Shown: positions 28,061-57,136, numbered from the stretch's first letter. The stretch: 64,000 bases of DNA from a virus (IMGVR_UViG_3300027844_002282); one strand, 5' to 3'. Translations and numbers: made by a program. The notes: generated by a model from the sequence alone, not told the origin.

Positions 28061-30496
28061 CTATACTGTTTCAAAAAATTCCGGCTGCTCTTTAACTACT
28101 TTTGCATGTATTTCTTTCAATTTTTCAAGGCCGTATTCCTTTAGCATGTATTCTCCGTCAGGGCCGTAGCCTATGATCTTCTCATATTCATATGCCAATC
28201 TCTTTTCAGAAACCTTCGCGCCGTCAAACAATAATTCTTTATTTCTATGAATCGACTCATCAAGCTCTGGGTCTATAGAATATCCTCTAAGGTTTAATAT
28301 GATCGCCCTCGTAACCATGAGCGGATTAATCGGGATAACAACGTCTGGGTTGAGGATCGGTCTAACAATCTTGGCCTCAATATCATCCATGGCTTTTCCC
28401 GTTATATCGTAGATATTATTGTCAATAAAACTATAAAGTAGACTATTGACGGTAAAGTCTCTGGCATACACGTCTAAGTGAATTGGGGTCGTTGAGATAT
28501 TCTCTTCTCTCATAAGCGGTCTTACACCCTCTGTGAAAATACGTTTTCCACGAAAGTCCATCGATACGCCTTCATACTCATAACTCATCGTTCCAGTTCT
28601 TTGGCTAAATCCGATATCGACAATACCAAGATCTGCCGCAAGAAGACCGCCAAGTTTTTGAACGTTCTCGACTACCGGAGATGTGAAATCAAGATCGTTA
28701 ACCTCAAGGAAATTCTTTGTCGTTGCCAATGTTCTTGGGAATCCACCAACTACGAAACAGTCTTCTATCCCATATGTCTGTGATAATATCTTACACTTAC
28801 TAAGTATCTTATTGATTGTTTCCTTAAGTCTTCCCTGAAGGTTAACAAATGAGTTTACACGATCAATGTTAGATCCAGAGTTTACATTGTCCTCAATTTC
28901 TTTAATATCTTCTAAGTCTTCATCCCCAGTAATCCAAACTACAACTTTATCCTTGAGATTGTCATTCTCAAATATTGCATACGGAAAATCTCCTAATGCG
29001 TCAACAACATGAGGTAAAGCGTCTTCATGAACAATCAGCCTGGCTACATTTATCTTTTTTGACAAAACCATCTTCTTATAATACCCAACCCTTCTCAATA
29101 TTTGAACAATATAATTCTTAGATTCGTTATCTGTCACATTATAAAGAGAGTTGCCAACTGCCCCAGCAGTACCAAAATCGGATCGGCCAGACCAATAAGT
29201 ATCTCTATCGTTCCACTTCTCTGGTCTATTCCTATGTTCTGGTGAAGCAAGGTCAATCTGGATATCATTTTTCCAGTAAGATCTACCAAATCTATCTTTG
29301 GCTATTTTACCCCTACCGTACCTTTCATCATATCTTCTCATCCAATATCTTCTGTCTGAAGATTCTCCGTCGTAATATCCATGGGTGTCAGAAATATCAT
29401 CAGCCTCAAATGGCTCTCTCCAACCCGCATTAAATCCATTTAGATATCCAAAGACGCCACCAATATGCGGGCCACCAACGTTACTTCTCCATGACGCGAA
29501 CTTAATAAGTTTATTTGTCGATGCCGCTTTTTGAATAGGAATAATCAAAGCGTGAGGAAGCTTGTCCATTAACATTTTCTCTAACGTTACAGACTCTGTC
29601 TCAGCAACCCCCTTCTCTTTCCTTTCTTGAGTAAGGTTTTCCTCACAAGTTTTATCTCCCGATTCGTCACCAGTGTGAAGATTGTTTTCAAGAAGGGTTT
29701 CCACTGAGTCATACTTTGTCCCTTCGGTAGCGAATTCTTGAAAGTTAACCTCTTGATTGGATCTCAACACTGTTTCAATTAGACTCCACTGGAACGGGGC
29801 GATCTGAGCCTTCCTATACCAACTATTTTCATTTGAAGCGTGAGTCATTTCCCCTGTCGTTTCAAAAGGCAGGTTAAACCTATTCATCCCCCAAGAAAGA
29901 AGGGAATTTTGCAACTCTTGACATGGGCCTTCGTCCCCACCTTTGGCATGTAAGGCTTCGTGGGCAATAATGGAAGCTAACTGAACTTTTCGAAGGTTGT
30001 TCTTATCATCCTCGGTAATCGTATCTGGATCGGAGTCCAAAATCATTTGGTCAGTAATATCCATGATTCTTGCAATATCGATGCCAATAACGCTTCCACC
30101 TTCAGATTTTTTCTTTTCAAAAAGTCTTCTCATCTCTTCTGTCACTTCTTCTGGATCTTTATCTGGAGAATATGCATATAGAAGATCACTTTCTGAAGGG
30201 CTCTCTGGAATATTAGTTACATAACCAGATCTTTCAAGCTCTTTCTTAACCCTGACCCAATCAACTGTTTCGTTCAATGATGGGTTGAAAACCCCGAATG
30301 CATCTACATCAGTAGAATTGTAAATGTATGCTACATTTTTCAACAGATCTCCCCCAGCAAATTCGTTAACTAACGAAACAGCCTCGGAAGCGCCGGGGAA
30401 TCTCCCGGAAATTTCATCAGAATTAACATTTCCTGAGCCTACGTTCTGCTCAATTGTGTCAACCTTCTGTTCTATCTCTTGCAATTCTGGATTCAT
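28061..30496 (-). CDS. CCA-adding / poly(A) polymerase family nucleotidyltransferase with long N-terminal extension (HEXXH domain plus repeat linker)
   Basis: CFVVGGFPR...NDLDF...ARDFTVNSL class II nucleotidyltransferase head motifs; IAHEALH near the N-terminus. Confidence 0.8.
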   Translation of the reverse strand: MNPELQEIEQKVDTIEQNVGSGNVNSDEISGRFPGASEAVSLVNEFAGGDLLKNVAYIYNSTDVDAFGVFNPSLNETVDWVRVKKELERSGYVTNIPESPSESDLLYAYSPDKDPEEVTEEMRRLFEKKKSEGGSVIGIDIARIMDITDQMILDSDPDTITEDDKNNLRKVQLASIIAHEALHAKGGDEGPCQELQNSLLSWGMNRFNLPFETTGEMTHASNENSWYRKAQIAPFQWSLIETVLRSNQEVNFQEFATEGTKYDSVETLLENNLHTGDESGDKTCEENLTQERKEKGVAETESVTLEKMLMDKLPHALIIPIQKAASTNKLIKFASWRSNVGGPHIGGVFGYLNGFNAGWREPFEADDISDTHGYYDGESSDRRYWMRRYDERYGRGKIAKDRFGRSYWKNDIQIDLASPEHRNRPEKWNDRDTYWSGRSDFGTAGAVGNSLYNVTDNESKNYIVQILRRVGYYKKMVLSKKINVARLIVHEDALPHVVDALGDFPYAIFENDNLKDKVVVWITGDEDLEDIKEIEDNVNSGSNIDRVNSFVNLQGRLKETINKILSKCKILSQTYGIEDCFVVGGFPRTLATTKNFLEVNDLDFTSPVVENVQKLGGLLAADLGIVDIGFSQRTGTMSYEYEGVSMDFRGKRIFTEGVRPLMREENISTTPIHLDVYARDFTVNSLLYSFIDNNIYDITGKAMDDIEAKIVRPILNPDVVIPINPLMVTRAIILNLRGYSIDPELDESIHRNKELLFDGAKVSEKRLAYEYEKIIGYGPDGEYMLKEYGLEKLKEIHAKVVKEQPEFFETV

Positions 30497-36134: not shown

Positions 36135-36899
36135 TTAGATATGAGCTTCTACTATGGGTACTTCAATGACTTTTTCATGGAAGAATGAGTGCCCCCAGAG
36201 GCCATCCTCTCCCATACAATCCCCGTGGTCTGAACATAGAATAATATCTGTGTTTTTCATCTTCGGAGATTGAAGTAATCTTTCGATCATTTTATCAAGA
36301 TACTCTATACATCTGATCTGAGCAGATCGACACCGTTTATCACCCCAATTAATTGGCTCATCATTTTCTCGTATCCTATAACTGTGATGAGTTTCTCCAA
36401 AATTCATAAATAAGAAAAACTTCTTATCTGTAGGTAATTCTTCAAGAACATAGTCAATCTGTTTCTTTGCAACCGTGAACTCTCCAAAGAACCCGAACTT
36501 CTTAAAATCGTCAATTGCCGAAATGTGCGCTGGTTTATTTATATTGAACCATCCAACAGCACCAGTTCCAACAGTATCATACCCCTTCATATTGAATCCA
36601 TGAACAATATTTCTCCCGTCAAGTTGAACATGAGCATCTCCGGGGGACTCTGGGTTATTCAATCTCCACCACTGGCGACCATCTGTCTTCCTACCCGATC
36701 TCGCACAAGTATCGAAAGATCCACTACGTGTATGGGGTAATTTTCCAATGAAGAATGAGGTATGAGCCGGTAGAGTATATGTCCCATGTGTAAATGCCTT
36801 TTCAAATGGGAACGATTTTATTGTCGGCAAGTTAGCGTCTCTGAACGTGTCCCATCTTAAACTGTCAAAAACTATTAATGCTTGATTTCTCATTTCCAA
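36135..36899 (-). CDS. Sulfatase / alkaline-phosphatase superfamily enzyme
   Basis: FDSLRWD, TYTLPAHTSFF (Thr at the nucleophile position), ETH, CSDHGD, WGH, VP. Confidence 0.75.
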   Translation of the reverse strand: MEMRNQALIVFDSLRWDTFRDANLPTIKSFPFEKAFTHGTYTLPAHTSFFIGKLPHTRSGSFDTCARSGRKTDGRQWWRLNNPESPGDAHVQLDGRNIVHGFNMKGYDTVGTGAVGWFNINKPAHISAIDDFKKFGFFGEFTVAKKQIDYVLEELPTDKKFFLFMNFGETHHSYRIRENDEPINWGDKRCRSAQIRCIEYLDKMIERLLQSPKMKNTDIILCSDHGDCMGEDGLWGHSFFHEKVIEVPIVEAHI

Positions 36900-38125
36900 T
36901 TTATCTCGTGAATATCTCCATTAAAACCATGTGGCGTAACTCCAACAGGTAGATACCTCTTTAAAATCTGAATATCTTCATTTCCAAACTTCAAACCGCT
37001 CAAATCTACGGGTCTCTTCCTTACTATTACGCTTATATTATATCCATACTTTTTTACCCTCGCTAATGAACAGTCGAATCCAGCCAGGATGAGATGCATA
37101 AGGAGTAACCCAGCGTTCCACAAAGATACGTGTCCGCCAACGATCTCGTGTTTTAATGGAGGTACTGTTATGGCTAAGACCCCATCGTCGGTAAGGTCTC
37201 TGTGTATCTTCTTCAAAAATTCATTAGGACTTAATTGGTGTTCGAGAACATGAGAACACCATATACAATCGAACTTCTTGTCGAATTCATGATCACTATA
37301 GTCCCCAACTATATCGGCGTGTTTTCCATGGACATAATCTATAGAGGTAACGTCCTTTCTACACGACTTAAAAGCCGCCTTATGGTTCCCATGTCTACCG
37401 CATCCGATATCAAGTACTGATTTGAACTCGAAGTCGTTGACGAGCTTTGAAATGCATTCGTGAGAATGCATTTCAGTAAAAACAATCGGCTTTCTCTTCG
37501 TAATAATAGCTGCACTGTCAATATCTATTTTCATATCAAGAAACTTTGATATTGTATTCCATTCTTCTTTAGGGAAAGATGTGACATCTTCAAAATTAAC
37601 ATTTAGACAATCAATACCCTGATTGCTTACGTGTTCAACCATTTTATCTCTAAACCCGTTCCATTTTTCTATCCTACCCTTATAGTGCTTCGGGCTCAAC
37701 TTGTTCATCTTAGCCGAAGAAGCGGCTTGGTTGTCAATGTTTCTATGGAGAACGATGACTCTTACATCTACACCTGAATCTTTTAACTCTTTCAAGAATG
37801 GAAGGTCGTATGTTCTATATGATTTAGTCGCTACGACATCTTTGTTTTTATACTGGTTATTTAGGAATTTCTTATAGTCCTTAATATTCTCTTCACCCCT
37901 CTCTATAACACTCTCGATTGGTGGCGGGTTTTCGCAAACAAATAATTTCTTGTATATCTTCTTTATCTTATTTATGTGGGGCTCACTCTCAAAATATCCG
38001 CCTGGATTGAATTTGTCTTCAGTCTTCGTGTCCTTCACGAACGCTCCTGATTTCCTCAAAACCTTCATCATGTATGAAGACCCAATCCTCCCCATCCCAT
38101 ATGTTAATACAATCAATTTCTTCAT
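36890..38125 (-). CDS. Sulfotransferase-like domain fused to class I SAM methyltransferase
   Basis: GMGRIGSS, NPGGYFE, LHRN...SS, VNFED; then VLDIGCG, FDCIWCSHVLEH, G.L.ITVP. Confidence 0.75.
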   Translation of the reverse strand: MKKLIVLTYGMGRIGSSYMMKVLRKSGAFVKDTKTEDKFNPGGYFESEPHINKIKKIYKKLFVCENPPPIESVIERGEENIKDYKKFLNNQYKNKDVVATKSYRTYDLPFLKELKDSGVDVRVIVLHRNIDNQAASSAKMNKLSPKHYKGRIEKWNGFRDKMVEHVSNQGIDCLNVNFEDVTSFPKEEWNTISKFLDMKIDIDSAAIITKRKPIVFTEMHSHECISKLVNDFEFKSVLDIGCGRHGNHKAAFKSCRKDVTSIDYVHGKHADIVGDYSDHEFDKKFDCIWCSHVLEHQLSPNEFLKKIHRDLTDDGVLAITVPPLKHEIVGGHVSLWNAGLLLMHLILAGFDCSLARVKKYGYNISVIVRKRPVDLSGLKFGNEDIQILKRYLPVGVTPHGFNGDIHEINWK

Positions 38126-39525
38126 ACCAATTTCTCCAAGAAAGAAGTTTTGTCGTCACTAATGATGATACTTATTTTACCCTTATATTTATCAAGTATG
38201 CTTCTGTACGCTTTTGTTACCCCAGGCCAAGCCTGATTTTTGTAATCGTCAATAGCGATCACTCCGCCCTTAACAACATACGGGAACATCATTCCAAAAT
38301 CAGAATTTACAGCCGCCTCGCTGTGTTCTCCATCTATATACACGAAATTAAATTTTCGCCCTTCTATTTCTTTCTTAAGCTCGCATGAGGGGATGAAAAA
38401 ATGTTTATGGTTGGATAGCTTGGAGATGTGCTCGCAAAATTTTTCTCTAAATTTACCAATATTATTAGCCCCGTCTGTATTTAATCCTCCAGAGGCGAAT
38501 TTATCATTCAGTGGATCACATGAATACAATTCCCAATTTGGGAAAAGTGACATCATCATGTTAGAGATAAAAACAGTCGTCTTCCCAGCCTTCACCCCAA
38601 TCTCACACATATCTCCAACGATGTCTTTTTTCTTAAGCGAGAAAAATATATCTGCCATATCACCCATGACTTGTTTCTGACTTTTTAGATCCTCAACCTT
38701 TTTTGCTTCCCCTATAGCATCCCTAATGATCTTATTTTTCAAAGGTTCTGGGTATACCTCGTTATAGACTTTTCCCTTCTGTCGCCGTTCATTAAGTCTC
38801 TTGAAATGGGGGACATCCATCCAGTTATCTGGCCAGACTTGTGTGGCAGTTTCAATCCTCTTGCAATTCTTAAAATGTAAGTAGCATCTTTTGTCAATTT
38901 TACTCTCAGAAGAAGAATAGTTATTTAAGACTTCGCAGAAATCACCCTGTATATAATAAGACTCCGGGCAAACCTTGAAAACCCTTGGCTCGAATGTCGC
39001 TACCAAGTCTGGACTAAAATGAGAGATGTGATCCCCACTAAGATTTATTCCATGGAAAAACGTCTTCCCAAACTTTTTGTAGTTAGAAAGATCGGCGACC
39101 ATATTTGGCGTGGCTATCATATCACCATCCCACTTACAAACAAAGGATCTACTCGTGAGGGATAAGGACCAATTATAATAGTACGCAAGATCATGTATGG
39201 AGTCTTCTGGAATATCTCTATGACCGGGGCCATTATGATGCATCTTGAAAGGATATTGATATATCTTTATTTTATCAGAGTTAATATTCCTTATAATATT
39301 TTCTGTATTATCTTCCGAGCCATTTAGTGTAACGATTATCTCATCGAAAAACCCAAGTACAGACTGAATACTTGGTAGTATAAACTCTTCTTCGTTCTTT
39401 ATCCTGATCATTGCGGAAATTCCATCTTTCCTATTCTCAAGCCAGTCTTTTTTTATAAAATACTTTTCTACCCCTTCTCTATTTTTAAGATGCATTTTAA
39501 CCTCTATAGAATGGTTCCGAACCAT
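38122..39525 (-). CDS. GT2-like (CgtA-like) glycosyltransferase fused to a Methyltransf_24/TylF-like domain
   Basis: ISAMIRIKNEE..DEII..SEDNT, YYNWSL, KWDGD; EIGV..G, YIDGEH, GGVIAIDDY..WPGV. Confidence 0.75.
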   Translation of the reverse strand: MVRNHSIEVKMHLKNREGVEKYFIKKDWLENRKDGISAMIRIKNEEEFILPSIQSVLGFFDEIIVTLNGSEDNTENIIRNINSDKIKIYQYPFKMHHNGPGHRDIPEDSIHDLAYYYNWSLSLTSRSFVCKWDGDMIATPNMVADLSNYKKFGKTFFHGINLSGDHISHFSPDLVATFEPRVFKVCPESYYIQGDFCEVLNNYSSSESKIDKRCYLHFKNCKRIETATQVWPDNWMDVPHFKRLNERRQKGKVYNEVYPEPLKNKIIRDAIGEAKKVEDLKSQKQVMGDMADIFFSLKKKDIVGDMCEIGVKAGKTTVFISNMMMSLFPNWELYSCDPLNDKFASGGLNTDGANNIGKFREKFCEHISKLSNHKHFFIPSCELKKEIEGRKFNFVYIDGEHSEAAVNSDFGMMFPYVVKGGVIAIDDYKNQAWPGVTKAYRSILDKYKGKISIIISDDKTSFLEKLV

Positions 39526-46622: not shown

Positions 46623-47462
46623 TTATCTCTGGGTTTTTAATACATAAAGCTCGGATTGTTCTCCTTTAATATTTATACATAATGTCGTTATTTCTATGTC
46701 ACAACTTGGCCCTGAAATGGGACTTGTATTACAACTAAAAACTATCGTCTCGCCTCCCCAGGCAATTATTGGCTTAAAAAACACATCTATATCCATGCCA
46801 ACTAATTCGACATTCGACTTTGGACCTCTTAAGAAATCATATCCTGACTTGTTAGCATATTTGATAATTCCACAGTTTACCACTATAGCTGGACAGTAGA
46901 TCATATCAATAACTTGATCTACAACAAGGATTGTCCTATCCTTTTCATTAAACTCTTCTTCCACGTCCCTTATAGATACAATATATCCAGAGATCCCATT
47001 CTTTACTGGGGAAACAACAATGTCCGCATGAAAGCTTTTTCCCTTGTCTCCACAAACCTCATCCTGATAGGAGCACTTAACCCCCCCCGTTCTTTCAATA
47101 CCATTGCTCAAGGCCGTGCTAAACGGCTCTCTATCTTTCCCGTCTTCAGAAGGTATAAAAATGAATTTTGAGACATGGAGCCCCTTGACCTCATTAAATA
47201 TAATACCAAACATTTTTTCAGAAGCAGGGTTTATAAAAACAATATTCTCAGATTCATCAAGAACTAAGAAGCCATCGGCAGAGGTGGATAAAATAGAGTC
47301 GGTTATCTTATATAGAGCCTTCAATTCAAAATCCTGAGAAGATATATCATTGGCCATTTTGGACAAGTCATCCAGTCTTCCTTGATTTTTTTTATGTTCT
47401 ATTTCCATGCGCTTGCTTTTCTCAACAGCATCGCCGACAAATAACTTCACAACCCAGTTCAA
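46623..47462 (-). CDS. PAS-domain protein with no output domain
   Basis: ILSTSADGFLVLD..IVFINPASEKMFG...EVKG...SIRDV; second degenerate PAS (IKYANKS). Confidence 0.75.
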   Translation of the reverse strand: MNWVVKLFVGDAVEKSKRMEIEHKKNQGRLDDLSKMANDISSQDFELKALYKITDSILSTSADGFLVLDESENIVFINPASEKMFGIIFNEVKGLHVSKFIFIPSEDGKDREPFSTALSNGIERTGGVKCSYQDEVCGDKGKSFHADIVVSPVKNGISGYIVSIRDVEEEFNEKDRTILVVDQVIDMIYCPAIVVNCGIIKYANKSGYDFLRGPKSNVELVGMDIDVFFKPIIAWGGETIVFSCNTSPISGPSCDIEITTLCINIKGEQSELYVLKTQR

Positions 47463-48388: not shown

Positions 48389-48545
48389 TAGTATTCTAAT
48401 TAATGAAAAGGAAACCTTTATTTCCCACCAAAAGGAGGATTTTGTGAGAAGCTTTCTTAAAATGACTTGACATCGACCGTTTGTGGTGTATTATAAGCAC
48501 ATTGAAACAAACACATCGACATAAAAGTTTTTCGGAACGAAAGGA
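48389..48545. repeat. 157-bp direct repeat, copy 1 (divergent promoter cassette)
   Basis: Identical to 49287-49443; contains TTGACA-N16-TATTAT (+, 48467-48494) and AAAGG-N17-AGAAT (-, 48393-48419). Confidence 0.95.
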
Positions 48546-49286: not shown

Positions 49287-49443
49287 TAGTATTCTAATTA
49301 ATGAAAAGGAAACCTTTATTTCCCACCAAAAGGAGGATTTTGTGAGAAGCTTTCTTAAAATGACTTGACATCGACCGTTTGTGGTGTATTATAAGCACAT
49401 TGAAACAAACACATCGACATAAAAGTTTTTCGGAACGAAAGGA
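49287..49443. repeat. 157-bp direct repeat, copy 2 (promoter cassette for a two-gene insert)
   Basis: Identical to 48389-48545. Confidence 0.95.
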
Positions 49444-49458
49444 GAACGATGAGAACAA

Positions 49459-50277
49459 ATGAAAACTTACTGCATAATCGGTGCCTACGAGTATAATGGC
49501 AGTGCTCGTGATGCGATAGTCGAATACTTTTGTATGCAGGGGGTCGATGGCTTGGTTGTCGTTGATCATAGAAGCCAAAGACCGGCTAGCGACGAGATAG
49601 GGAATGCCGATGCTTGGATGTATCTATGCAGTGCTGCCTGTTCTGCTGGGATGGAGGTGATTTTTCAGTATCACGAATTACCGCGAAGCATAGACCAAGG
49701 ACGAATCGAGAAGATCGTGTCTACTGGGTGCGGCAAGATAAGTATCGGGAGCGCAGAAACTACAGAATGGGTCGGCTCTCACGAGTTGGCGGAAGAAAAC
49801 ATTGAGATTGGCAAGCGCATGGGTTTCGAGTGGGTGTGCGGCATAACGCCGAGGACGATCCTAATGGATTTACTTACTCGTAAGCGGAGAGAAGTTCTCG
49901 TCAGGAATAATGTCTTGTGCCTTACCCTTTCTCCCTATATCCTGTGGGGGTATATGTTTGCTGACGAGCGATTCCCCCATCAATGGGAAACCACGCTGGC
50001 GGGAAAGAACCTTCATGTCGAGTACGGTCTCACGCCGGAAAGACTTGCTGACTACGTTGAGCCACTTGACATAATGGCGGGAGTGGGATCACAGGTGGGT
50101 CTTGATGCCGGTAGCGCAGTATATGCCAAGATGTTAAACTTCAAGGGTTTGGTGATCTCGCTGCCGTTCGATCTGACGGGTGTGTTCGACACCTCAGTAA
50201 GAATGTCGCCTCCGGGCAGCTACCCGACTATTTGTGGGAATTTTGAAGAGGGAGGATACAGGAATGCCTATGCGTGA
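49459..50277 (+). CDS. Hypothetical protein, possible TIM-barrel-like enzyme
   Basis: 272 aa with alternating beta/alpha pattern; overlaps the next gene. Confidence 0.55.
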   Translation: MKTYCIIGAYEYNGSARDAIVEYFCMQGVDGLVVVDHRSQRPASDEIGNADAWMYLCSAACSAGMEVIFQYHELPRSIDQGRIEKIVSTGCGKISIGSAETTEWVGSHELAEENIEIGKRMGFEWVCGITPRTILMDLLTRKRREVLVRNNVLCLTLSPYILWGYMFADERFPHQWETTLAGKNLHVEYGLTPERLADYVEPLDIMAGVGSQVGLDAGSAVYAKMLNFKGLVISLPFDLTGVFDTSVRMSPPGSYPTICGNFEEGGYRNAYA

Positions 50278-51238
50278 CGGGATCGTGCTGAGATTTATTC
50301 CGGGGGTCACTTATTCTGTCGTCATTTTTCATATTGGTCACATGACCACGATGATGTGCAATTTTCTTTACGCGAAAAAGCATCATGGTATCTGCTATAT
50401 TGCGCCAGAGATAAGTACAATCGGGTTAAACGGAGCGGGGTTTATAAGACCGTACCTGTCGATAAGTGGCTATCGAACAGATACTTCTCTCAGGCTGTTT
50501 GGTAATCTGGGTATCCCGGAAGTACTGATAAGACCGATTCCAACATACTGGGGTGGCTTAGAGCTACGCCAAGAGATGAGTAAAAAACTTCATGCAGAAA
50601 CTGGAGCATCGATTAGCCAAATATTGGATGAATTCCCGAAGGCTGATATCAGTAGTTCGATAGTCGCTGTTTTTGATTTTCTCTTGGGGTCGAATGTCAT
50701 AATTCGCGGTGGTGATTGGAAGGGCATTGTAGATCCCCATATCCGTGCTTCGACTTATGTAGAGACCCATCGAGCGATCCTAAATTATTTAAGAGGGATA
50801 GTCGGTCAAGGTCCGATTACGGAACACTTCGCACCACTAGTTCTTTCGGACGGAGAGAAGATATCCAAGTCAGCCATTGCTGACATGGGAGAAGACCCCG
50901 TAGTAGTATTCCGAGAAGGGGGATGTTCGACGGAAAATGCCCCCGGAATTTCCCCTCTGGCGTATCTGGTATGGATGGCTGGAAAGGTTGGAGAGGATCT
51001 TAGGTCGATTGATGATTTTGTCAATTATTATCAGCTTTTCGACATCGAGGCTGTTCCGGAAGAGCTTGATTTTGTATTGGATGACCTGCTCAATGCCGAC
51101 GAGGTTGTCAAAAAAGCGTTCGGTCATACATCGAGTAGCGGCGATGACTTGGTGAAACACCTTGCTGTTTTCAGCGATGCTTTAGGGGTTAGTCGGGTCG
51201 ATGGCGTTTACGAGGATACTATAATTTGTAATTTTTGA
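50264..51238 (+). CDS. Minimal glutamyl-tRNA synthetase-like (GluRS/GluQ-RS-like) catalytic domain protein
   Basis: VLRFIP...FHIGH...NFLYAKKHHG, IIRGGDW, PLVLSDGEKISKS are GluRS HIGH, IRGED and KMSKS equivalents. Confidence 0.7.
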   Translation: MPMRDGIVLRFIPGVTYSVVIFHIGHMTTMMCNFLYAKKHHGICYIAPEISTIGLNGAGFIRPYLSISGYRTDTSLRLFGNLGIPEVLIRPIPTYWGGLELRQEMSKKLHAETGASISQILDEFPKADISSSIVAVFDFLLGSNVIIRGGDWKGIVDPHIRASTYVETHRAILNYLRGIVGQGPITEHFAPLVLSDGEKISKSAIADMGEDPVVVFREGGCSTENAPGISPLAYLVWMAGKVGEDLRSIDDFVNYYQLFDIEAVPEELDFVLDDLLNADEVVKKAFGHTSSSGDDLVKHLAVFSDALGVSRVDGVYEDTIICNF

Positions 51239-51454
51239 ACTTTTACAGAATGCATGGGATGAGCCTATTTCAAAGGTGGAAATAGAATTGTCCCCTGTGG
51301 AAAATAAGGATGCATCATCTATCCTGATTATAAAATATGCATAAATACTTTGAAAATGTTGGCGAAACCGGAAGTCATGACTCAGTGGAAACCCTCCGGT
51401 AACTCTCACCGACAGAAAACAAGAGAGCAATAGGCCTGGGCGGGAAAAATAGAT

Positions 51455-51532
51455 GCAGACTGTAGTGTTAGTAGCTCAGCACACTTGATTGTGGCTCAAG
51501 TAGGGGCGGTTCGAATCCGCTCAGCCTGCCCA
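51455..51532 (+). tRNA. tRNA-His(GTG)
   Basis: G-1, CTTGA-TT-GTG-GC-TCAAG, C discriminator, CCA. Confidence 0.85.
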
Positions 51533-51549
51533 TCTTTTGCTGTATAATA

Positions 51550-51636
51550 TCCAGTGTAAACCGTAATGGCAGCGGAACGGACTGTTAATCCGTGACATTT
51601 TATGTCCTGTAAGTTCAAGTCTTACCTCTGGAGCCA
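51550..51636 (+). tRNA. tRNA-Asn(GTT) with long variable arm
   Basis: ACGGA-CT-GTT-AA-TCCGT; extra GACAT-TTT-ATGTC arm; GCCA. Confidence 0.8.
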
Positions 51637-51646
51637 ATTTTATAAT

Positions 51647-51721
51647 AGGTCTGTAGCTTAGTTGGAAGAGCTACTGTCTTCTAAGCAGTTGGTCCGGGCT
51701 CGAATCCTGGCAGGAGCGCCA
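51647..51721 (+). tRNA. tRNA-Arg(TCT) with damaged acceptor stem (possible pseudogene)
   Basis: ACTGT-CT-TCT-AA-GCAGT; first three acceptor pairs mismatched. Confidence 0.6.
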
Positions 51722-51819
51722 GTCGCTCTATACGTCTCGTACCAAGCCGAGTGCAAACGGTTGGGATGTACCCGCAAGGGAAATTTTGCAACCGGATGGT
51801 ACCCGGCTGGACGAGCGCA
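51722..51819 (+). ncRNA. Double-pseudoknot structured RNA
   Basis: Five stems plus two 6-bp long-range pairings (see findings). Confidence 0.6.
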
Positions 51820-51827
51820 TTTTATTT

Positions 51828-51904
51828 GCCCCCGTAGTTCAATTGGATAGAGCAATAGTTTTCTAAACTATCTTGTGTAGGTTCGAGTCCTACCGGGGGT
51901 ACCA
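51828..51904 (+). tRNA. tRNA-Arg(TCT)
   Basis: ATAGT-TT-TCT-AA-ACTAT, CCA. Confidence 0.9.
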
Positions 51905-51915
51905 TTTCTCAAAGA

Positions 51916-51989
51916 GGGTCCGAAGCATTAAGGTGAGGCAATGGGTTTTTACCCTATGGAACAGGGATCATTACCCTGCGGGCCTACCA
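51916..51989 (+). tRNA. tRNA-Lys(TTT) with atypical T-loop
   Basis: ATGGG-TT-TTT-AC-CCTAT; T-loop ATCATTA; ACCA. Confidence 0.75.
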
Positions 51990-52003
51990 ATTTTCAAAAC
52001 AGC

Positions 52004-52031
52004 TTGACTTTTTTCAAAAGCAGGTTATAAT
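52004..52031 (+). promoter_or_regulatory. Sigma70-like promoter TTGACT-N16-TATAAT
   Basis: Immediately upstream of a tRNA cluster. Confidence 0.7.
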
Positions 52032-52044
52032 ACACTTAACAGAT

Positions 52045-52116
52045 GCCTACGTAGCTCAACTGGAAGAGCACTTCGCTACGAAGAGGTTGCAAGTTCAAAC
52101 CTTGCAGTGGGTACCA
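52045..52116 (+). pseudogene. tRNA-Arg(ACG)-derived gene with a 4-nt anticodon-arm deletion
   Basis: CTTCG-CTA-CGAAG where CTTCG-CT-ACG-AA-CGAAG is expected. Confidence 0.65.
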
Positions 52117-52120
52117 TTTT

Positions 52121-52265
52121 GATAATGTGGCGGAATTGGAATACGCGCCGCTGTAATAGCGGTAGAGAGCAATGGGTTCAACTCCCATTTAAGGTACGGT
52201 TACCGCTTGGCTGTAATAGCTAAGGCAATGTCTCCTTGTGGGTTCGAGACCCATCATTATCATCA
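52121..52265 (+). ncRNA. Double tRNA-Leu(TAA)-like RNA with two anticodon arms and two T-arms
   Basis: GATAATG/CATTATC acceptor, Leu-type D-arm, GCTGTAATAGC twice, T-arms with TTCAACT and TTCGAGA loops. Confidence 0.7.
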
Positions 52266-52275
52266 AAATTTAGAT

Positions 52276-52365
52276 TGCGGGTAAATCGACTGGCGTAGCA
52301 GATAACTGGCTCATAACCAGGGAGGGGCAACCCTTAGGTCGGTTCAATTCCGACACCCGCTACCA
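52276..52365 (+). tRNA. tRNA-Met(CAT) with long variable arm and 1:72 mismatch
   Basis: CTGG-CT-CAT-AA-CCAG; AGGG-GCAA-CCCT arm; ACCA. Confidence 0.7.
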
Positions 52366-52461
52366 TTTTAACTATGATAAAATATGAAATCAGATAGAGA
52401 TATGGATGTAGAGTATACAAAAACCCAACTCGTTATTTTTGGGATATATGAGATTTAATGT

Positions 52462-52557
52462 TGTGAGGATTGATTGAAAGTACTATGCTTTCATCAGGAA
52501 AACTGTAAAGTTCCATGGACTTAGCGGCTGGAGGTTCGACGCCTTCTCTCACAGCCA
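52462..52557 (+). ncRNA. tRNA-like RNA with Tyr-type loop and replaced D-arm
   Basis: TGTGAGG/TCTCACA-GCCA acceptor, canonical T-arm, CT-GTA-AA loop, long hairpin in the D position. Confidence 0.6.
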
Positions 52558-52558
52558 T

Positions 52559-52638
52559 AGCGGAAGAGTGGATGTGGATACATAGACCATACCAGCCTCA
52601 TAAGTTGGAGATTGCAGGTTCGACTCCTGCTTCCGCTA
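52559..52638 (+). tRNA. tRNA-Met/Ile2(CAT), no encoded CCA
   Basis: CCAGC-CT-CAT-AA-GTTGG; atypical D-arm; followed directly by a ribozyme. Confidence 0.75.
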
Positions 52639-52709
52639 GATTAGTATAATGACAAGCCTCCACGTGGCACTAATCGGAAACGAACTAACCCTCGGCTAAT
52701 TTGTCATTA
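52639..52709 (+). ncRNA. HDV-like (theta) self-cleaving ribozyme
   Basis: P1 GATTAGT/ACTAATC, P2 TAATGACAA/TTGTCATTA, P3 GCC/GGC, L3 TCCACGT, P1.1 CC:GG, J4/2 GCTAA. Confidence 0.85.
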
Positions 52710-52837
52710 ATAATATCCGTAATTATCATCAAATATTTCTTCGCCCCATCGGTCTTGAAATATCCAAAAGAGGAGGTGTCGATAATACACAAGGAAATTC
52801 CATGGTTAATACACGATCCCATTAATTTTCGAATAGG

Positions 52838-52954
52838 TTGTGACTAAGGCCCGGTAAAGCCGGGTGCCGATCACTTACTAAGGCCTCAGCCCGTAAGTGC
52901 CGGGCGGGAACACAGAGGCTCTACCCCCGAAGATAACCAAACTTTGAGTCACAA
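52838..52954 (+). ncRNA. Structured RNA with probable kissing loop
   Basis: TTGTGACT/AGTCACAA closing stem; CCCGG/CCGGG; CACTTAC/GTAAGTG; loop GCCTC can pair with GAGGC. Confidence 0.5.
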
Positions 52955-53002
52955 TACTTTTTCCTTGGAGATAATATGGAAGATAAAATACACCCGCTGG
53001 TT

Positions 53003-53053
53003 GGACAATCGTTCAAAGTTGAATGGTGGATTCGAATCCCACTTGGTCCACCA
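53003..53053 (+). pseudogene. tRNA remnant or minihelix (T-arm plus acceptor ending ACCA)
   Basis: GTGGA-TTCGAAT-CCCAC-TTGGTCC-ACCA with no D or anticodon arm. Confidence 0.45.
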
Positions 53054-53121
53054 ATTTATTACAGGGATTTCTTTCGAATAATTAGAAGTATTAGCTCAAC
53101 CCACAACAATAGGAGGGTAAT

Positions 53122-53409
53122 ATGAATAAGAACAAAATCATCGGGACACTAATGGTGGCTCCGTTACCGATTTATCTCGTCTATCTTCTTTTGGCAAAAG
53201 AGATTTTGCCGATTGTCATTTGTCTTGCGGCTGGAGTTGGATTATTCCACTTCGGACTCAAACTTTTGACAGGATCAACACTCGAAGAGGTCGGCGAAGA
53301 TGTTGTCAGACATCTCGACGAGGTTGAGGAAGAAGCAGAAGAAGCAGTTGATAAGATTAAGAAAAAGACAAGGAAGCCAAGGGCGAAGAAGGCTGTTAAA
53401 AAGAGTTGA
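53122..53409 (+). CDS. Small membrane protein, two TM helices and basic tail (holin-like)
   Basis: AGGAGG RBS; late-promoter motif at 53061-53088. Confidence 0.65.
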   Translation: MNKNKIIGTLMVAPLPIYLVYLLLAKEILPIVICLAAGVGLFHFGLKLLTGSTLEEVGEDVVRHLDEVEEEAEEAVDKIKKKTRKPRAKKAVKKS

Positions 53410-53532
53410 CGGATAGGGTATGTTAAAATGACCGACGACCATTCTTCCCCACGGGGAAGTAGCTATTACATACGTTGAGGGATTGGATACGAGACCAATA
53501 CGTGAGTTTCACAAGATGGCAAGTCAATTTTT

Positions 53533-53609
53533 GGATCGGTGGCGCAATTAGGTAGCACAGCAGACTTTTAATCTGTGGGTTGTGGGTTCGATTCCCACCC
53601 GATTCACCA
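53533..53609 (+). tRNA. tRNA-Lys(TTT)
   Basis: GCAGA-CT-TTT-AA-TCTGT, ACCA. Confidence 0.9.
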
Positions 53610-53700
53610 GCTTGATTGACAGGGTCTCGCAGACCGTACCAATAACAAAAGCAAATATCTTAATCTATGCCACCTGACATTTTATTTTTACGAGGAGCCA

Positions 53701-54009
53701 ATGAATAATTTAACGGAAGAAAAAATATTTGACGAGTTAAGACCAATATTAGACCCTGATCTTGGAATAAGCATTGTAGATATGGGTTTGATATATAAAG
53801 CCAAGATAAATGGAGATCATGTTGATGTTGAAATGACATTAACATCTATTGGATGTCCATATGGTCCATATTTAATATCTGAAGTAACAGAAACAGTCAA
53901 AAATATTGATAGTATTAAAACGGTAAATGTAGAACTCGTTTGGGAACCACCTTGGTCGATTGAAAATTTGTCAGACGAAGTTAAATTAGATATTGGAATA
54001 GACATCTAA
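53701..54009 (+). CDS. DUF59 / SufT-like Fe-S assembly protein
   Basis: DPDLGISIVDMGLIY, MTLTSIGCP, VELVWEPPW. Confidence 0.9.
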   Translation: MNNLTEEKIFDELRPILDPDLGISIVDMGLIYKAKINGDHVDVEMTLTSIGCPYGPYLISEVTETVKNIDSIKTVNVELVWEPPWSIENLSDEVKLDIGIDI

Positions 54010-54069
54010 ACCGGTTGCAAGTTCGATTCTTGCCTGGAGAGATAATTTTCAACAAGGGTATTTTTATTT

Positions 54070-54148
54070 GGCCTTAGCTCATGTTGTGGCTTAGAGCGCC
54101 TGTTTTGCAAGCAGGAGGTAGTGGGTTCGATGCCCACAGGGGCCACCA
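54070..54148 (+). tRNA. tRNA-Ala(TGC) with shortened acceptor 5' strand
   Basis: CCTGT-TT-TGC-AA-GCAGG; GGCCT opposite AGGGGCC. Confidence 0.65.
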
Positions 54149-54156
54149 ATTTTTAC

Positions 54157-54561
54157 TTAAAGTCCAGCCAATCCCCTAAATAAACGCATGGCACCAATTC
54201 TATCACCCGCGAAATTACCCTTTTGGTCATCTGGGCCAACAAAAAACCAGTAATCTCTGAATCTGTCGGTTGCAATTTCACCGAGGATCTTCCTGATCTG
54301 GGTGTGAGAGATATCTTGAGAAAAGGTCGCCTCAAAATTTTCCGCGAAGAATGTCAACCTACACCAGCCACTTGCGATAGCATTATAGCCAAGGGTGAGA
54401 CTGTCAAAGGGCATTGGAAACGATTCAGAACCAATCTCGTCTTCAGAAAGGTATTCTGCTAAAGCTTTCTCATGTCCCTGGAAATCATTTACGGGGACTT
54501 CTCCACCATCAGGGTCTATCCATAACCCATAAGCCCCTTGAGATTTTTTGTACCAATTCAT
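54157..54561 (-). CDS. Hypothetical protein (MNWYKKSQ...)
   Basis: 134 aa, antisense to the tRNA island. Confidence 0.65.
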   Translation of the reverse strand: MNWYKKSQGAYGLWIDPDGGEVPVNDFQGHEKALAEYLSEDEIGSESFPMPFDSLTLGYNAIASGWCRLTFFAENFEATFSQDISHTQIRKILGEIATDRFRDYWFFVGPDDQKGNFAGDRIGAMRLFRGLAGL

Positions 54562-54798
54562 ATTTTGTCCATATCAAAATTTCTATGCTCAGTTGGGGAA
54601 ACGCCGGAGCGCGTAACTCCGCCCCTCTGGGCTCCTTTTCAACGAAGAGTAAGCATTAAAGAGGTACTGTCACAATTAGATGTACAATAAACTCAGTCCA
54701 CATCCCTCTCATATAACAATGACAGCATCGAGGTAAATATATGAAAAACTATGAAGAAATGAGCTGCGAAGAGCTTCGCCAAAACAGGAAAAAATAGT

Positions 54799-55242
54799 AT
54801 GGGGCTACTTAGCGCTATTTGTAAAGGTTGCAAGAAAAATATTGAACATTTTAGTTTCGACAATGACATCACCTGTAGAGGATGCGGAATTATAAATGCT
54901 TCAAGTGAAATTCAGCTTTCGACCTTAAGCTACGGAAAGGGACGTGAAGACGGAAAAGACTCATCATCCAGATGGCTTAAATCTTGGATGAACAATAGAG
55001 AAAAACATAATTCATTAGAAGATTGGTATAATGCACTATATAGTATTGTTTACAAAACCAAAAAGTCGCCGCCAAAATTCAAAACTAAAATATCCCTACA
55101 CGCATCAAACCTTCTTTTAAATATGGCAAGGCTTAAGAAAGAGGGGATGGGCGACGAGAAACACGACTATATGTGCGAAAAGATTTGCGATGTTATAATA
55201 GACGCAGAAGATTGGGAAAAAGAACATGATATAGAATCATAG
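54799..55242 (+). CDS. Zn-ribbon hypothetical protein
   Basis: CKGC...CRGC. Confidence 0.6.
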   Translation: MGLLSAICKGCKKNIEHFSFDNDITCRGCGIINASSEIQLSTLSYGKGREDGKDSSSRWLKSWMNNREKHNSLEDWYNALYSIVYKTKKSPPKFKTKISLHASNLLLNMARLKKEGMGDEKHDYMCEKICDVIIDAEDWEKEHDIES

Positions 55243-55303
55243 TGGGAATAAATGGTGACAACATGACAAAAAGAATCGTAGTAACGAACAAGAGATAATC
55301 ATA

Positions 55304-56030
55304 ATGCAATGGGACTCAGTATACATGCCAAACTCAGCTTATCCCCCGCACGTTGGACATGCGGCAATGATCTTACACGCAAGAGCGAGCTTTCTCTACA
55401 CAAAATTTTATTTAGAATCTTATAACACGCCTGGAATCGATCTTAGATGGGGGGTCGTTCATGATGTTCGCTCAACACCAGAGTTTGAAAAAATGCAGGT
55501 TGATCTTATGAATTGGATGGGATACCCACCGGAATTTGAATTGCGACTAAATGAATATGGGAATTTTCAAGCCGACGTGATGTGCATGTTGTTAAAGATG
55601 GAAATTCGAGAGGCCGATTTCAAAAGCCTTGAAATTGGGAAGTTTATGGTTCTAAACTCAGTAAGAACTCACATAAGGGGGGTGGGACCTTGTTCCGTTA
55701 GAAAAAGTAGAGAGGCCATTGGCGGGCGCTTTTGGATTCGGCTACCCAACAATAAGATACGCCCCATTATTATTAGACAATAATGGCGAAAAGATATGCT
55801 CTAGTAAAAGCGAGCATAAAAAGTTTCAACTAACTCAAGTAACTATGGATTCAAATGGGCCAGACAGTCTGATTGAAAAGCTATTAAAATGCCACTGCCC
55901 TGACGCGGAACATGTGAGAGGCGAAGACCCTGACGAAATAGCGATCAGATGGTGTAGAAAACTATGGACGCATTACCATGGATTAGCTTGTCTTGGACAG
56001 CCAATGACGCCAATAAAATTTAACTTATAA
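55304..56030 (+). pseudogene. Second minimal GluRS-like gene, split by one extra G in a G6 run
   Basis: PHVGH; removing one G at 55677-55682 joins THIRG-WDL...GYPTIRYAPLLLDNNGEKICSSKS. Confidence 0.7.
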
Positions 56031-56033
56031 AAT

Positions 56034-56110
56034 GCCGATGAAACATTTATATGGATGATGTCCTGTCTTGTAAGCAGGTTAACTCGGATCGTTACCGAGC
56101 TTCGGCTCCA
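56034..56110 (+). tRNA. tRNA-Thr(TGT) with atypical T-loop
   Basis: CCTGT-CT-TGT-AA-GCAGG; T-loop ATCGTTA; TCCA. Confidence 0.75.
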
Positions 56111-57056: not shown

Positions 57057-57136
57057 GGACGCATAGCTTAGTCTGGCTAAAGCGCTTGTATGACACATGC
57101 AAGAGATCGTTGGTTCGAATCCAACTGTGTTCACCA
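57057..57136 (+). tRNA. tRNA-Val(GAC) with 2-nt expanded anticodon loop
   Basis: CTTGT-ATGACACAT-GCAAG (9-nt loop); ACCA. Confidence 0.65.

Follow-up and report, generated by a model that had tools for sequence, protein, structure and literature searches.

What would a giant phage do with genes that resemble the glutamyl-tRNA synthetase (GluRS) catalytic core and lie within an island of tRNA genes? The question is raised by a 64,000-nucleotide stretch of DNA, called here the window, from the viral sequence IMGVR_UViG_3300027844_002282. Its source is an uncultured marine giant phage; proteins of the window recur on 24 or more metagenome contigs as long as 153 kb, and a blastn comparison of the region with deposited phages found no similarity beyond the tRNA genes. 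Three open reading frames (ORFs), named A, B and C, are considered here (Table 1). A preliminary description had taken B and C for two motif-bearing GluRS-like paralogs and had proposed that they are new adenylating enzymes, which would modify anticodons and so shield them from nucleases, charge tRNA mimics, or ligate a non-tRNA substrate. Sequence data do not discriminate among these three putative roles. Our analysis suggests that ORF B is a phage-specific, reduced GluRS/GluQRS core, that ORF C is a degenerate copy of such a gene, and that ORF A is a lineage-specific addition. To this combination as a whole we give an even chance, and its parts are graded separately below.

Fold and ancestry of ORF B

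Searches with the single sequence of ORF B reach GlnRS or GluRS chains only weakly (E 0.015-0.07) and over the HIGH region only. A profile built from seven sequences of the B family retrieves GluRS (6b1p) from the PDB at E 6.9e-9, and its further matches are exclusively GluRS, GlnRS and GluQRS chains. The AlphaFold2 (AF2) model of ORF B, with a predicted template-modelling score (pTM) of 0.69, has GluRS structures as its top Foldseek matches at a TM-score of about 0.52. By VIA-align, residues 5-295 of the model superimpose on residues 5-347 of M. tuberculosis GluRS with Z 15.6 and a root-mean-square deviation of 3.6 over 246 residues; the comparison with GluQRS (4a91) gives Z 12.8 over 221 residues (residues 3-293 of B), and those with GlnRS, archaeal GluRS, cysteinyl-tRNA synthetase (CysRS), MshC and class I LysRS give Z values of about 10. 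The ESM Atlas places ORF B next to viral clusters that contain PF00749 only, with a score of 0.90 and a structural TM of 0.64. In its predicted structure ORF B is a class I Rossmann protein with bacterial GluRS as the closest match. The lack of such a predicted fold was one outcome that, according to the preliminary description, would have refuted its proposal; the AF2, Foldseek and VIA-align results all lead from ORF B to GluRS. Based on the profile, structural and ESM Atlas matches taken together, ORF B is probably a descendant of a bacterial-type GluRS or GluQRS.

This descent does not make ORF B a member of a characterized family. The GltX equivalog model TIGR00464 does not match ORF B at E<=1 and scores its relatives at 13.7-28 bits, compared with a cut-off of 290; the GluQRS models TIGR03838 and NF004312-5 leave ORF B unmatched and give the best family member 34 bits, compared with cut-offs of 250-453. 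The B family lies far under the cut-offs of all GluRS, GlnRS and GluQRS equivalog models in NCBIfam, and judged by these models ORF B is the orthologue of no named enzyme.

Catalytic residues kept and lost

ORF B carries the motifs FHIGH at residues 22-26 (HIGH at 23-26), IIRGGD at 146-151 and KISKS at 199-203 within one reading frame. The alignment of seven family sequences contains 21 invariant positions, including R10, H23, G25, D138, R148, K199 and S201, all of which have equivalents in an eighth member (L007:8983-10020); the second lysine of KMSKS is absent in two members, P0004 and P0006. Profile-to-PDB alignments equate R10, D138 and R148 of ORF B with Arg5, Asp195 and Arg205 of Thermus thermophilus GluRS, which form the strictly conserved network described as 'principally responsible' for specific glutamate binding (PMC2978374). 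Since both the ATP signatures and this glutamate triad are retained, the term adenylating enzyme is a reasonable one for ORF B.

Other hallmarks of GluRS have been shed. PGVTYSVVIF stands in place of 'SPTG' and YIAPEIST in place of 'RIEDTD', and neither of the two classical motifs is conserved in the B family. The protein stops just past the stem-contact fold, at residue 324, and the C-terminal helical anticodon-binding domains are absent. The absence of SPTG, RIED and an anticodon-binding domain, already noticed in the preliminary description, is thereby confirmed for ORF B. Compared with GluRS, the acceptor-binding insertion between the two Rossmann halves is also shorter by about 60 residues (profile positions 46-109 correspond to chain positions 50-172).

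A small phage-borne family

An exhaustive HMMER search of 1.84 billion representative proteins recovered only six clusters of the B family at 50% identity, and every member lies on a metagenome contig, some of them clearly from huge phages. A scan covering the genomes of 185,579 prokaryote species detected no member, IMG/VR yielded no further one when scanned either with the family alignments or with ORF B alone, and 50,697 phage records searched by tblastn gave no match to ORF A or ORF B. Matches to PF00749 are confined to the HIGH region throughout the family; they stay below the gathering cut-off of 23.4 bits for ORF B (20.1), P0002 (18.9), P0004 (19.3) and P0006 (20.8), and exceed it for P0005 (25.1), P0007 (28.4) and P0008 (34.6).

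Comparison of ORF B with its closest relative, which is 79% identical, gives a ratio of nonsynonymous to synonymous substitution rates (dN/dS) of 0.39 in the N-terminal half and 0.23 in the C-terminal part, which marks ORF B as a working gene under purifying selection. Two other phage contigs carry overlapping tandem duplicates of the GluRS-like gene, at L005:339-2367 and L007:8983-11014. The copies of the first pair (P0004 and P0005) are 54% identical, and those of the second (L007:8983-10020 and P0008), which lies on a 472-kb scaffold, are 74% identical; with dN/dS of 0.18 and 0.28 both pairs are under purifying selection. The two duplications arose independently. In the L005 pair, the loss of the second KMSKS lysine from P0004 could point to a heterodimer or to a division of labour between the copies.

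Our literature search found nothing specific on phage GluQRS or truncated phage GluRS, nor any description of the B family. Catalytic-core-only GluRS paralogues are already known as a kind; what is new is a subfamily, highly divergent, restricted to phages and duplicated more than once, that kept the glutamate triad and shed other GluRS hallmarks.

ORF A and the duplicated promoter

The start codon of ORF B is preceded by a strong Shine-Dalgarno sequence, GAGGGAGGA, and lies within the 14-nt overlap with ORF A, so that the coupling to a 272-aa ORF reported in the preliminary description holds. The promoter of the two genes, which is near consensus, belongs to a 157-bp sequence that occurs twice in the window as an exact direct repeat, and the ATG of ORF A has the same offset from its copy as the ATG found 3' of the other. 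As the promoter and leader are an exact copy of those of a tRNA operon, the A-B cassette is probably co-expressed with the tRNAs. Recombination between the two copies would delete two tRNA-Gly genes.

ORF A has no match in Pfam, PHROG, NCBIfam or PADLOC, and a search of 5.8 billion proteins returned only self-matches; the small neighbouring ORFs likewise have no match in PHROGs, PADLOC or NCBIfam. The ESM Atlas model of ORF A (pTM 0.69) resembles TrpA, PdxJ, aldolase and glycosidase barrels with TM 0.55-0.64. Its GC content of 0.50, compared with 0.416 for the window, suggests a recent insertion. We propose that ORF A, TIM-barrel-like and translationally coupled to ORF B, would be a lineage-specific addition to a cassette placed under a duplicated tRNA-operon promoter.

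A search for a conserved partner of ORF B, either ORF A or another neighbour, led to rejection of the candidates: neither the 117-aa ORF that lies upstream of P0004 nor the 296-aa ORF that lies downstream of P0006 is related to ORF A or to the family.

Table 1. Positions of the repeat copies, reading frames and adjoining tRNA genes in the window
Feature	Coordinates	Strand	Description
157-bp exact direct repeat, copy 1	48389..48545		Drives the tRNA-Gly operon, first of the island
157-bp exact repeat, copy 2	49287..49443	+	TTGACA-16-TATTAT promoter and 5' leader; drives ORFs A and B
ORF A	49459..50277	+	272 aa, TIM-barrel-like, without family match
ORF B	50264..51238	+	324 aa; intact GluRS-like catalytic core and stem-contact-fold stub, without anticodon-binding domains
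tRNA-His(GUG) and tRNA-Asn(GUU)	51456..51636	+	First genes 3' of ORF B
ORF C, upstream frame	55304..55783	+	Frame 2, 159 aa, HVGH at residues 16-19; stop 34 codons past the shift site
G6 run	55677..55682	+	Site of the frame 2 to frame 0 jump (+1) in coding signal; context AUA AGG GGG GUG
ORF C, downstream frame	55677..56030	+	Frame 0; (IR)GWD and EKICSSKS; stop 3 nt before tRNA-Thr
tRNA-Thr(UGU)	56034..56110	+	Directly 3' of ORF C

The possible acceptor of ORF B

In the mechanism we propose, ORF B is a highly diverged GluRS/GluQRS descendant, pared down to the catalytic Rossmann core and a short stem-contact stub, that would bind ATP together with glutamate or a close carboxylate analogue. Formation of glutamyl-AMP by such a protein is fairly probable, judging from the residues it has kept. 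The glutamyl group would then pass to an acceptor that is not selected by anticodon reading with a canonical domain. A tRNA is our leading guess for this acceptor, held with slightly less than even confidence. Within it, a GluQRS-like addition to a modified nucleoside is rather unlikely when taken singly, and anticodon-blind charging of a tRNA 3' end a little more so. The ancestry of ORF B, its stem-contact stub and the promoter shared with a tRNA operon favor a tRNA acceptor, as does the presence of tRNA genes at two of the five B-family loci examined. One of these is the window; the other is the L007 pair, which has seven tRNA genes within 10 kb, including those for His(GUG) and Asp(GUC).

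Several observations weigh against the proposed role. ORF B itself does not reach the PF00749 cut-off (E 3e-4), and its AF2 model, built on a seven-row alignment, is of moderate confidence only (predicted local distance difference test, pLDDT, 62.9). The equivalents of Tyr187 and of Glu41 of GluRS, the latter located in 'RIEDTD', are not conserved in the B family. The trimmed acceptor-binding insertion disfavors classical tRNA binding, and so does the acidic character of the protein (isoelectric point 5.0). Neither the island, the rest of the window nor the next 10 kb encodes a tRNA-Glu, -Gln, -Asp or -Tyr. The genomic context is not conserved either: on the 6.7-kb contig of the closest relative both ORF A and tRNAs are absent, and the gene is preceded by one for tubulin and by a 107-aa ORF, next to a 5'-3' exonuclease; contigs L005 and L006 have no tRNAs. 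The tRNA-island setting emphasized in the preliminary description therefore describes the window and does not extend to the nearest relative of ORF B. Both the location within a tRNA island and the linkage to ORF A are specific to one genome and are not family traits.

Some of these observations lend weight to a different scenario, in which ORF B is a ligase that attaches glutamate or another acid to a non-tRNA acceptor and forms, together with ORF A, a two-enzyme module for small-molecule or glycan tailoring in the manner of MshC. The overlapping genes with their one common promoter, the barrel-like fold of ORF A, the trimmed insertion and acidity of ORF B and the missing tRNA context of most relatives would all suit such a module, and genes for a glycosyltransferase, a methyltransferase and a sulfotransferase are found 10 kb away in the window. 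However, ORF A lacks any detectable homologue, and neither the 79%-identical relative nor the other family members have it upstream; the A-B pairing is therefore not a family trait, and the GC content of ORF A points to its recent arrival. MshC itself, at Z 10.3, is a much weaker structural match than GluRS. We consider this scenario unlikely.

Equally unlikely, in our estimate, is the stricter version of the tRNA hypothesis, in which ORF B would work as a minimal GluRS, blind to the anticodon, and link glutamate as an ester to the 3' end of at least one tRNA of the phage or its host. This version would fit with the retained glutamate triad, HIGH and KMSKS, with structural matches that are headed by true GluRS and not by GluQRS, and with the location of the gene in a tRNA island; aminoacyl-tRNA synthetases and tRNAs of their own are known from huge phages (PMC7162821). 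Against it stand the lack of tRNA-Glu and tRNA-Gln genes in or near the island, an acceptor-binding insertion that has lost about 60 residues, scores far under the gltX equivalog cut-off, and the poor conservation of 'SPTG' and of the Glu41 and Tyr187 equivalents. What nucleoside modification, 3'-end charging and a non-tRNA ligase leave over we assign to some other role or to an inactive protein.

Comparison with known enzymes

Two bacterial enzymes and two less direct parallels help to place the B family. GluQRS (YadB/GluQ; PDB 1nzj, 4a91; TIGR03838) is, like ORF B, a core-only form of GluRS, about 300 aa in length, with HIGH, KMSKS and the arginine of IRGxD and without an anticodon-binding domain, and the GluQRS models match the family weakly in the HIGH and IRG regions. 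However, these matches reach only 14-34 bits, compared with cut-offs of 250-450, and because the scores are so far under the cut-offs ORF B is not a GluQRS orthologue. The insertion at which E. coli GluQRS binds zinc contains only one cysteine in ORF B and is shorter, and ORF B has about 50 extra C-terminal residues. GluQRS glutamylates queuosine 34 of tRNA-Asp, a target that is absent from the island of this phage.

Bacterial GluRS (GltX; TIGR00464; PDB 2ja2, 1j09, 4g6z, 6b1p) provides the best structural and profile matches to ORF B, and shares with it the Arg5/Asp195/Arg205 triad, HIGH, KMSKS and an FD(I/L)E motif where the stem-contact fold begins. In contrast to GltX, ORF B lacks both helical anticodon-binding domains, SPTG, RIEDTD and the Tyr187 equivalent, and has the shortened insertion. 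By comparison of sequences and models, ORF B would come nearest to GluQRS in the way it works and comes nearest to a truncated bacterial GluRS in its build, and it falls below the family thresholds of both.

The nearest language-model neighbours of ORF B, the viral PF00749-only clusters of the ESM Atlas (230-254 aa), are likewise phage-borne and consist of the catalytic core only. All members of these clusters pass PF00749, whereas most of the B family does not, and neither the IMG/VR scans nor the tblastn search of phage records revealed a sequence-level link between the two groups. MshC, the cysteine:GlcN-Ins ligase, shows by precedent how a class I core can activate an amino acid by adenylation and pass it on to a sugar, and its structure 8hfn is among the matches of the ORF B model. 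Unlike ORF B, MshC is of CysRS descent, and the two share only class I signatures. More generally, synthetase-like proteins without an anticodon reader, such as GluQRS, MshC and the cyclodipeptide synthases, are a recurring source of new chemistry.

ORF C, a probable relative with a frameshift

The second gene differs from ORF B in that the region 55304-56030 is not one ORF: it consists of two frames, and IRGWD and KICSSKS are reached only through a +1 shift, which the preliminary description had not mentioned. The claim of two motif-bearing paralogs thus stands for ORF B, with its HIGH, IRG and KISKS motifs in a single frame, and has to be modified for ORF C, whose motifs are divided by the shift. 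The downstream frame is open for about 115-117 codons, which has a chance probability of about 4.5e-4. It is exactly at the G6 run that the codon-usage log-odds pass from frame 2 to frame 0, and both parts score +0.113, as do ORFs A and B.

Read through the junction, ORF C (P0009) aligns with the B family by hhalign at 86% probability and E 4.6e-6, in an alignment that spans the shift, and its residues 118-183 match the NCBIfam GluQRS model NF004315 at E 2e-5. Its score with the family hidden Markov model (HMM) was reached by none of 1000 shuffled sequences. Taken separately, the parts do less well: against the family HMM the N-terminal part falls short of significance (48 of 1000 shuffles), and the downstream piece gives E 0.22 when all six frames of the window are scanned without bias. 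Direct BLASTP finds no significant similarity between ORFs B and C, and aligns ORF C with the L007 copy at 57% identity over 28 residues. The AF2 model of the read-through product, calculated with the family alignment, is too poor for a fold search (pLDDT 43.5, pTM 0.33). On these grounds the read-through sequence appears weakly but significantly GluQRS/GluRS-like. It retains HVGH, has Tyr, Met and Arg at the triad positions, with Arg10 and Asp138 lost, and carries an insertion in the KMSKS loop (KICSSKS). With the frameshift and the loss of two triad residues, the proposal of a new adenylating enzyme, reasonable for ORF B, becomes doubtful for ORF C.

Most likely, ORF C is a second, older and more degenerate paralogue that recently acquired a frameshift or tolerates it. 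That it is a recently inactivated gene, a pseudogene in a near-clonal phage population, we hold to be slightly better than an even proposition. The fully open downstream frame with its undiminished codon bias counts against this view to the extent that it fits programmed recoding as well as recent decay. Programmed +1 frameshifting, or polymerase slippage, at G6 would yield a 241-aa GluRS-like protein with an altered substrate pocket. Besides the long open frame 0 and a codon bias equal to that of intact genes, this possibility could draw on the shift site, which does not vary among four retrieved loci representing at least 24 contigs of several samples, and on the relatives, among which two retained copies are usual. 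On AGG GGG G, moreover, tRNA-Arg(CCU) or tRNA-Gly in the P site could pair anew in the +1 frame, and the phage encodes tRNA-Arg(CCU) and two tRNA-Gly(UCC). However, the contigs differ at only 0-2 positions in 6.4 kb, and because the population is near clonal the uniformity of the site says nothing about selection; no relative of ORF C was found in which the site could be seen to be conserved, and no stimulatory element was identified. The lost Arg and Asp of the triad, the insertion in the KMSKS loop and the poor AF2 model further reduce the appeal of a functional product, which we regard as improbable. That HVGH, IRGWD and KICSSKS are chance motifs in two short ORFs unrelated to GluRS would account for the missing BLASTP match to ORF B, the non-significant separate parts and the unusable model, but is very improbable in view of three motifs in correct order and spacing, the hhalign match over the junction, the match to an independent GluQRS model, the full read-through score that no shuffled sequence equaled and the similarity to the L007 copy.

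Other features of the window

The tRNA island comprises about 18 tRNA genes dispersed on the plus strand at about 48.8-61.4 kb. It includes three odd tRNA-like genes, namely one with the anticodon ACA (57057-57136), one with a two-base 'anticodon' call (52045-52116) and a short copy resembling tRNA-Arg(UCU) that is detected with relaxed thresholds only (51651-51717). A match to a hepatitis delta virus (HDV)-like ribozyme (RF02682) at 52639-52708, scored at 33.8 bits and thus under the gathering score of 44, begins one base 3' of tRNA-Met(CAU) (52562-52638), an arrangement as in theta-ribozyme-type processing of tRNA 3' ends. The island further contains an FeS_assembly_P (SufT/MIP18-like) gene at 53701-54009 on the plus strand, which has a GC content of 0.31 (0.20 at third codon positions, GC3), compared with the window mean of 0.416. 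A PAS-domain protein (PAS_9, E 3.6e-13) is encoded just upstream of the island at 46623-47462 on the minus strand. Past the island, at L012:11384-17195, about 1.4-7.2 kb beyond the 3' end of the window, genes for a CTP_transf_like nucleotidyltransferase, a phosphoribosyl pyrophosphate (PRPP) synthetase and an adenosine phosphosulfate (APS)-kinase/KTI12-like P-loop kinase may serve nucleotide or NAD salvage.

The minus-strand half of the window carries large ORFs, including one for a lectin-fold protein. The ORF at 8491-10773 matches a Mu-like portal weakly, with a score under the Pfam cut-off, and has a C-terminal MTES_1575/DUF559 restriction-endonuclease-like domain. In the 811-aa product of 28061-30496 a PolyA_pol head domain (the nucleotidyltransferase of CCA-adding enzymes and poly(A) polymerases) occupies only the C-terminal third, and the N-terminal ~570 residues are without a match. 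Two adjacent ORFs at 36890-39525, one with methyltransferase and sulfotransferase-like domains and the other with glycosyltransferase-2 and methyltransferase domains, look like a glycan- or small-molecule-tailoring pair. All three loci are on the minus strand.

Implications for giant phages

Genes for aminoacyl-tRNA synthetases and tRNA modification, along with tRNAs, are known in huge phages (PMC7162821). The B family is almost invisible to standard models, yet it has kept the glutamate triad and the ATP signatures and has been duplicated repeatedly under selection. One extension of our proposal, speculative and rather improbable as it stands, is that the family represents a phage-only glutamate-adenylating lineage that glutamylates tRNAs at a site away from that read by a canonical anticodon domain, for instance at the modified wobble base of GUN tRNAs such as the adjacent His and Asn tRNAs. 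The GUN anticodon class, which includes His(GUG) and Asn(GUU), carries queuosine in bacteria. If this were true, the repeated duplications would provide copies for different tRNA targets, and during infection decoding would be retuned or tRNAs would be shielded from host anticodon nucleases.

Identification of the acceptor would show whether giant phages edit tRNAs or other targets with glutamate, and bears on the reprogramming of translation by tRNA islands or the evasion of tRNA-targeting defences. Finally, the B family would offer a natural minimal GluRS scaffold.

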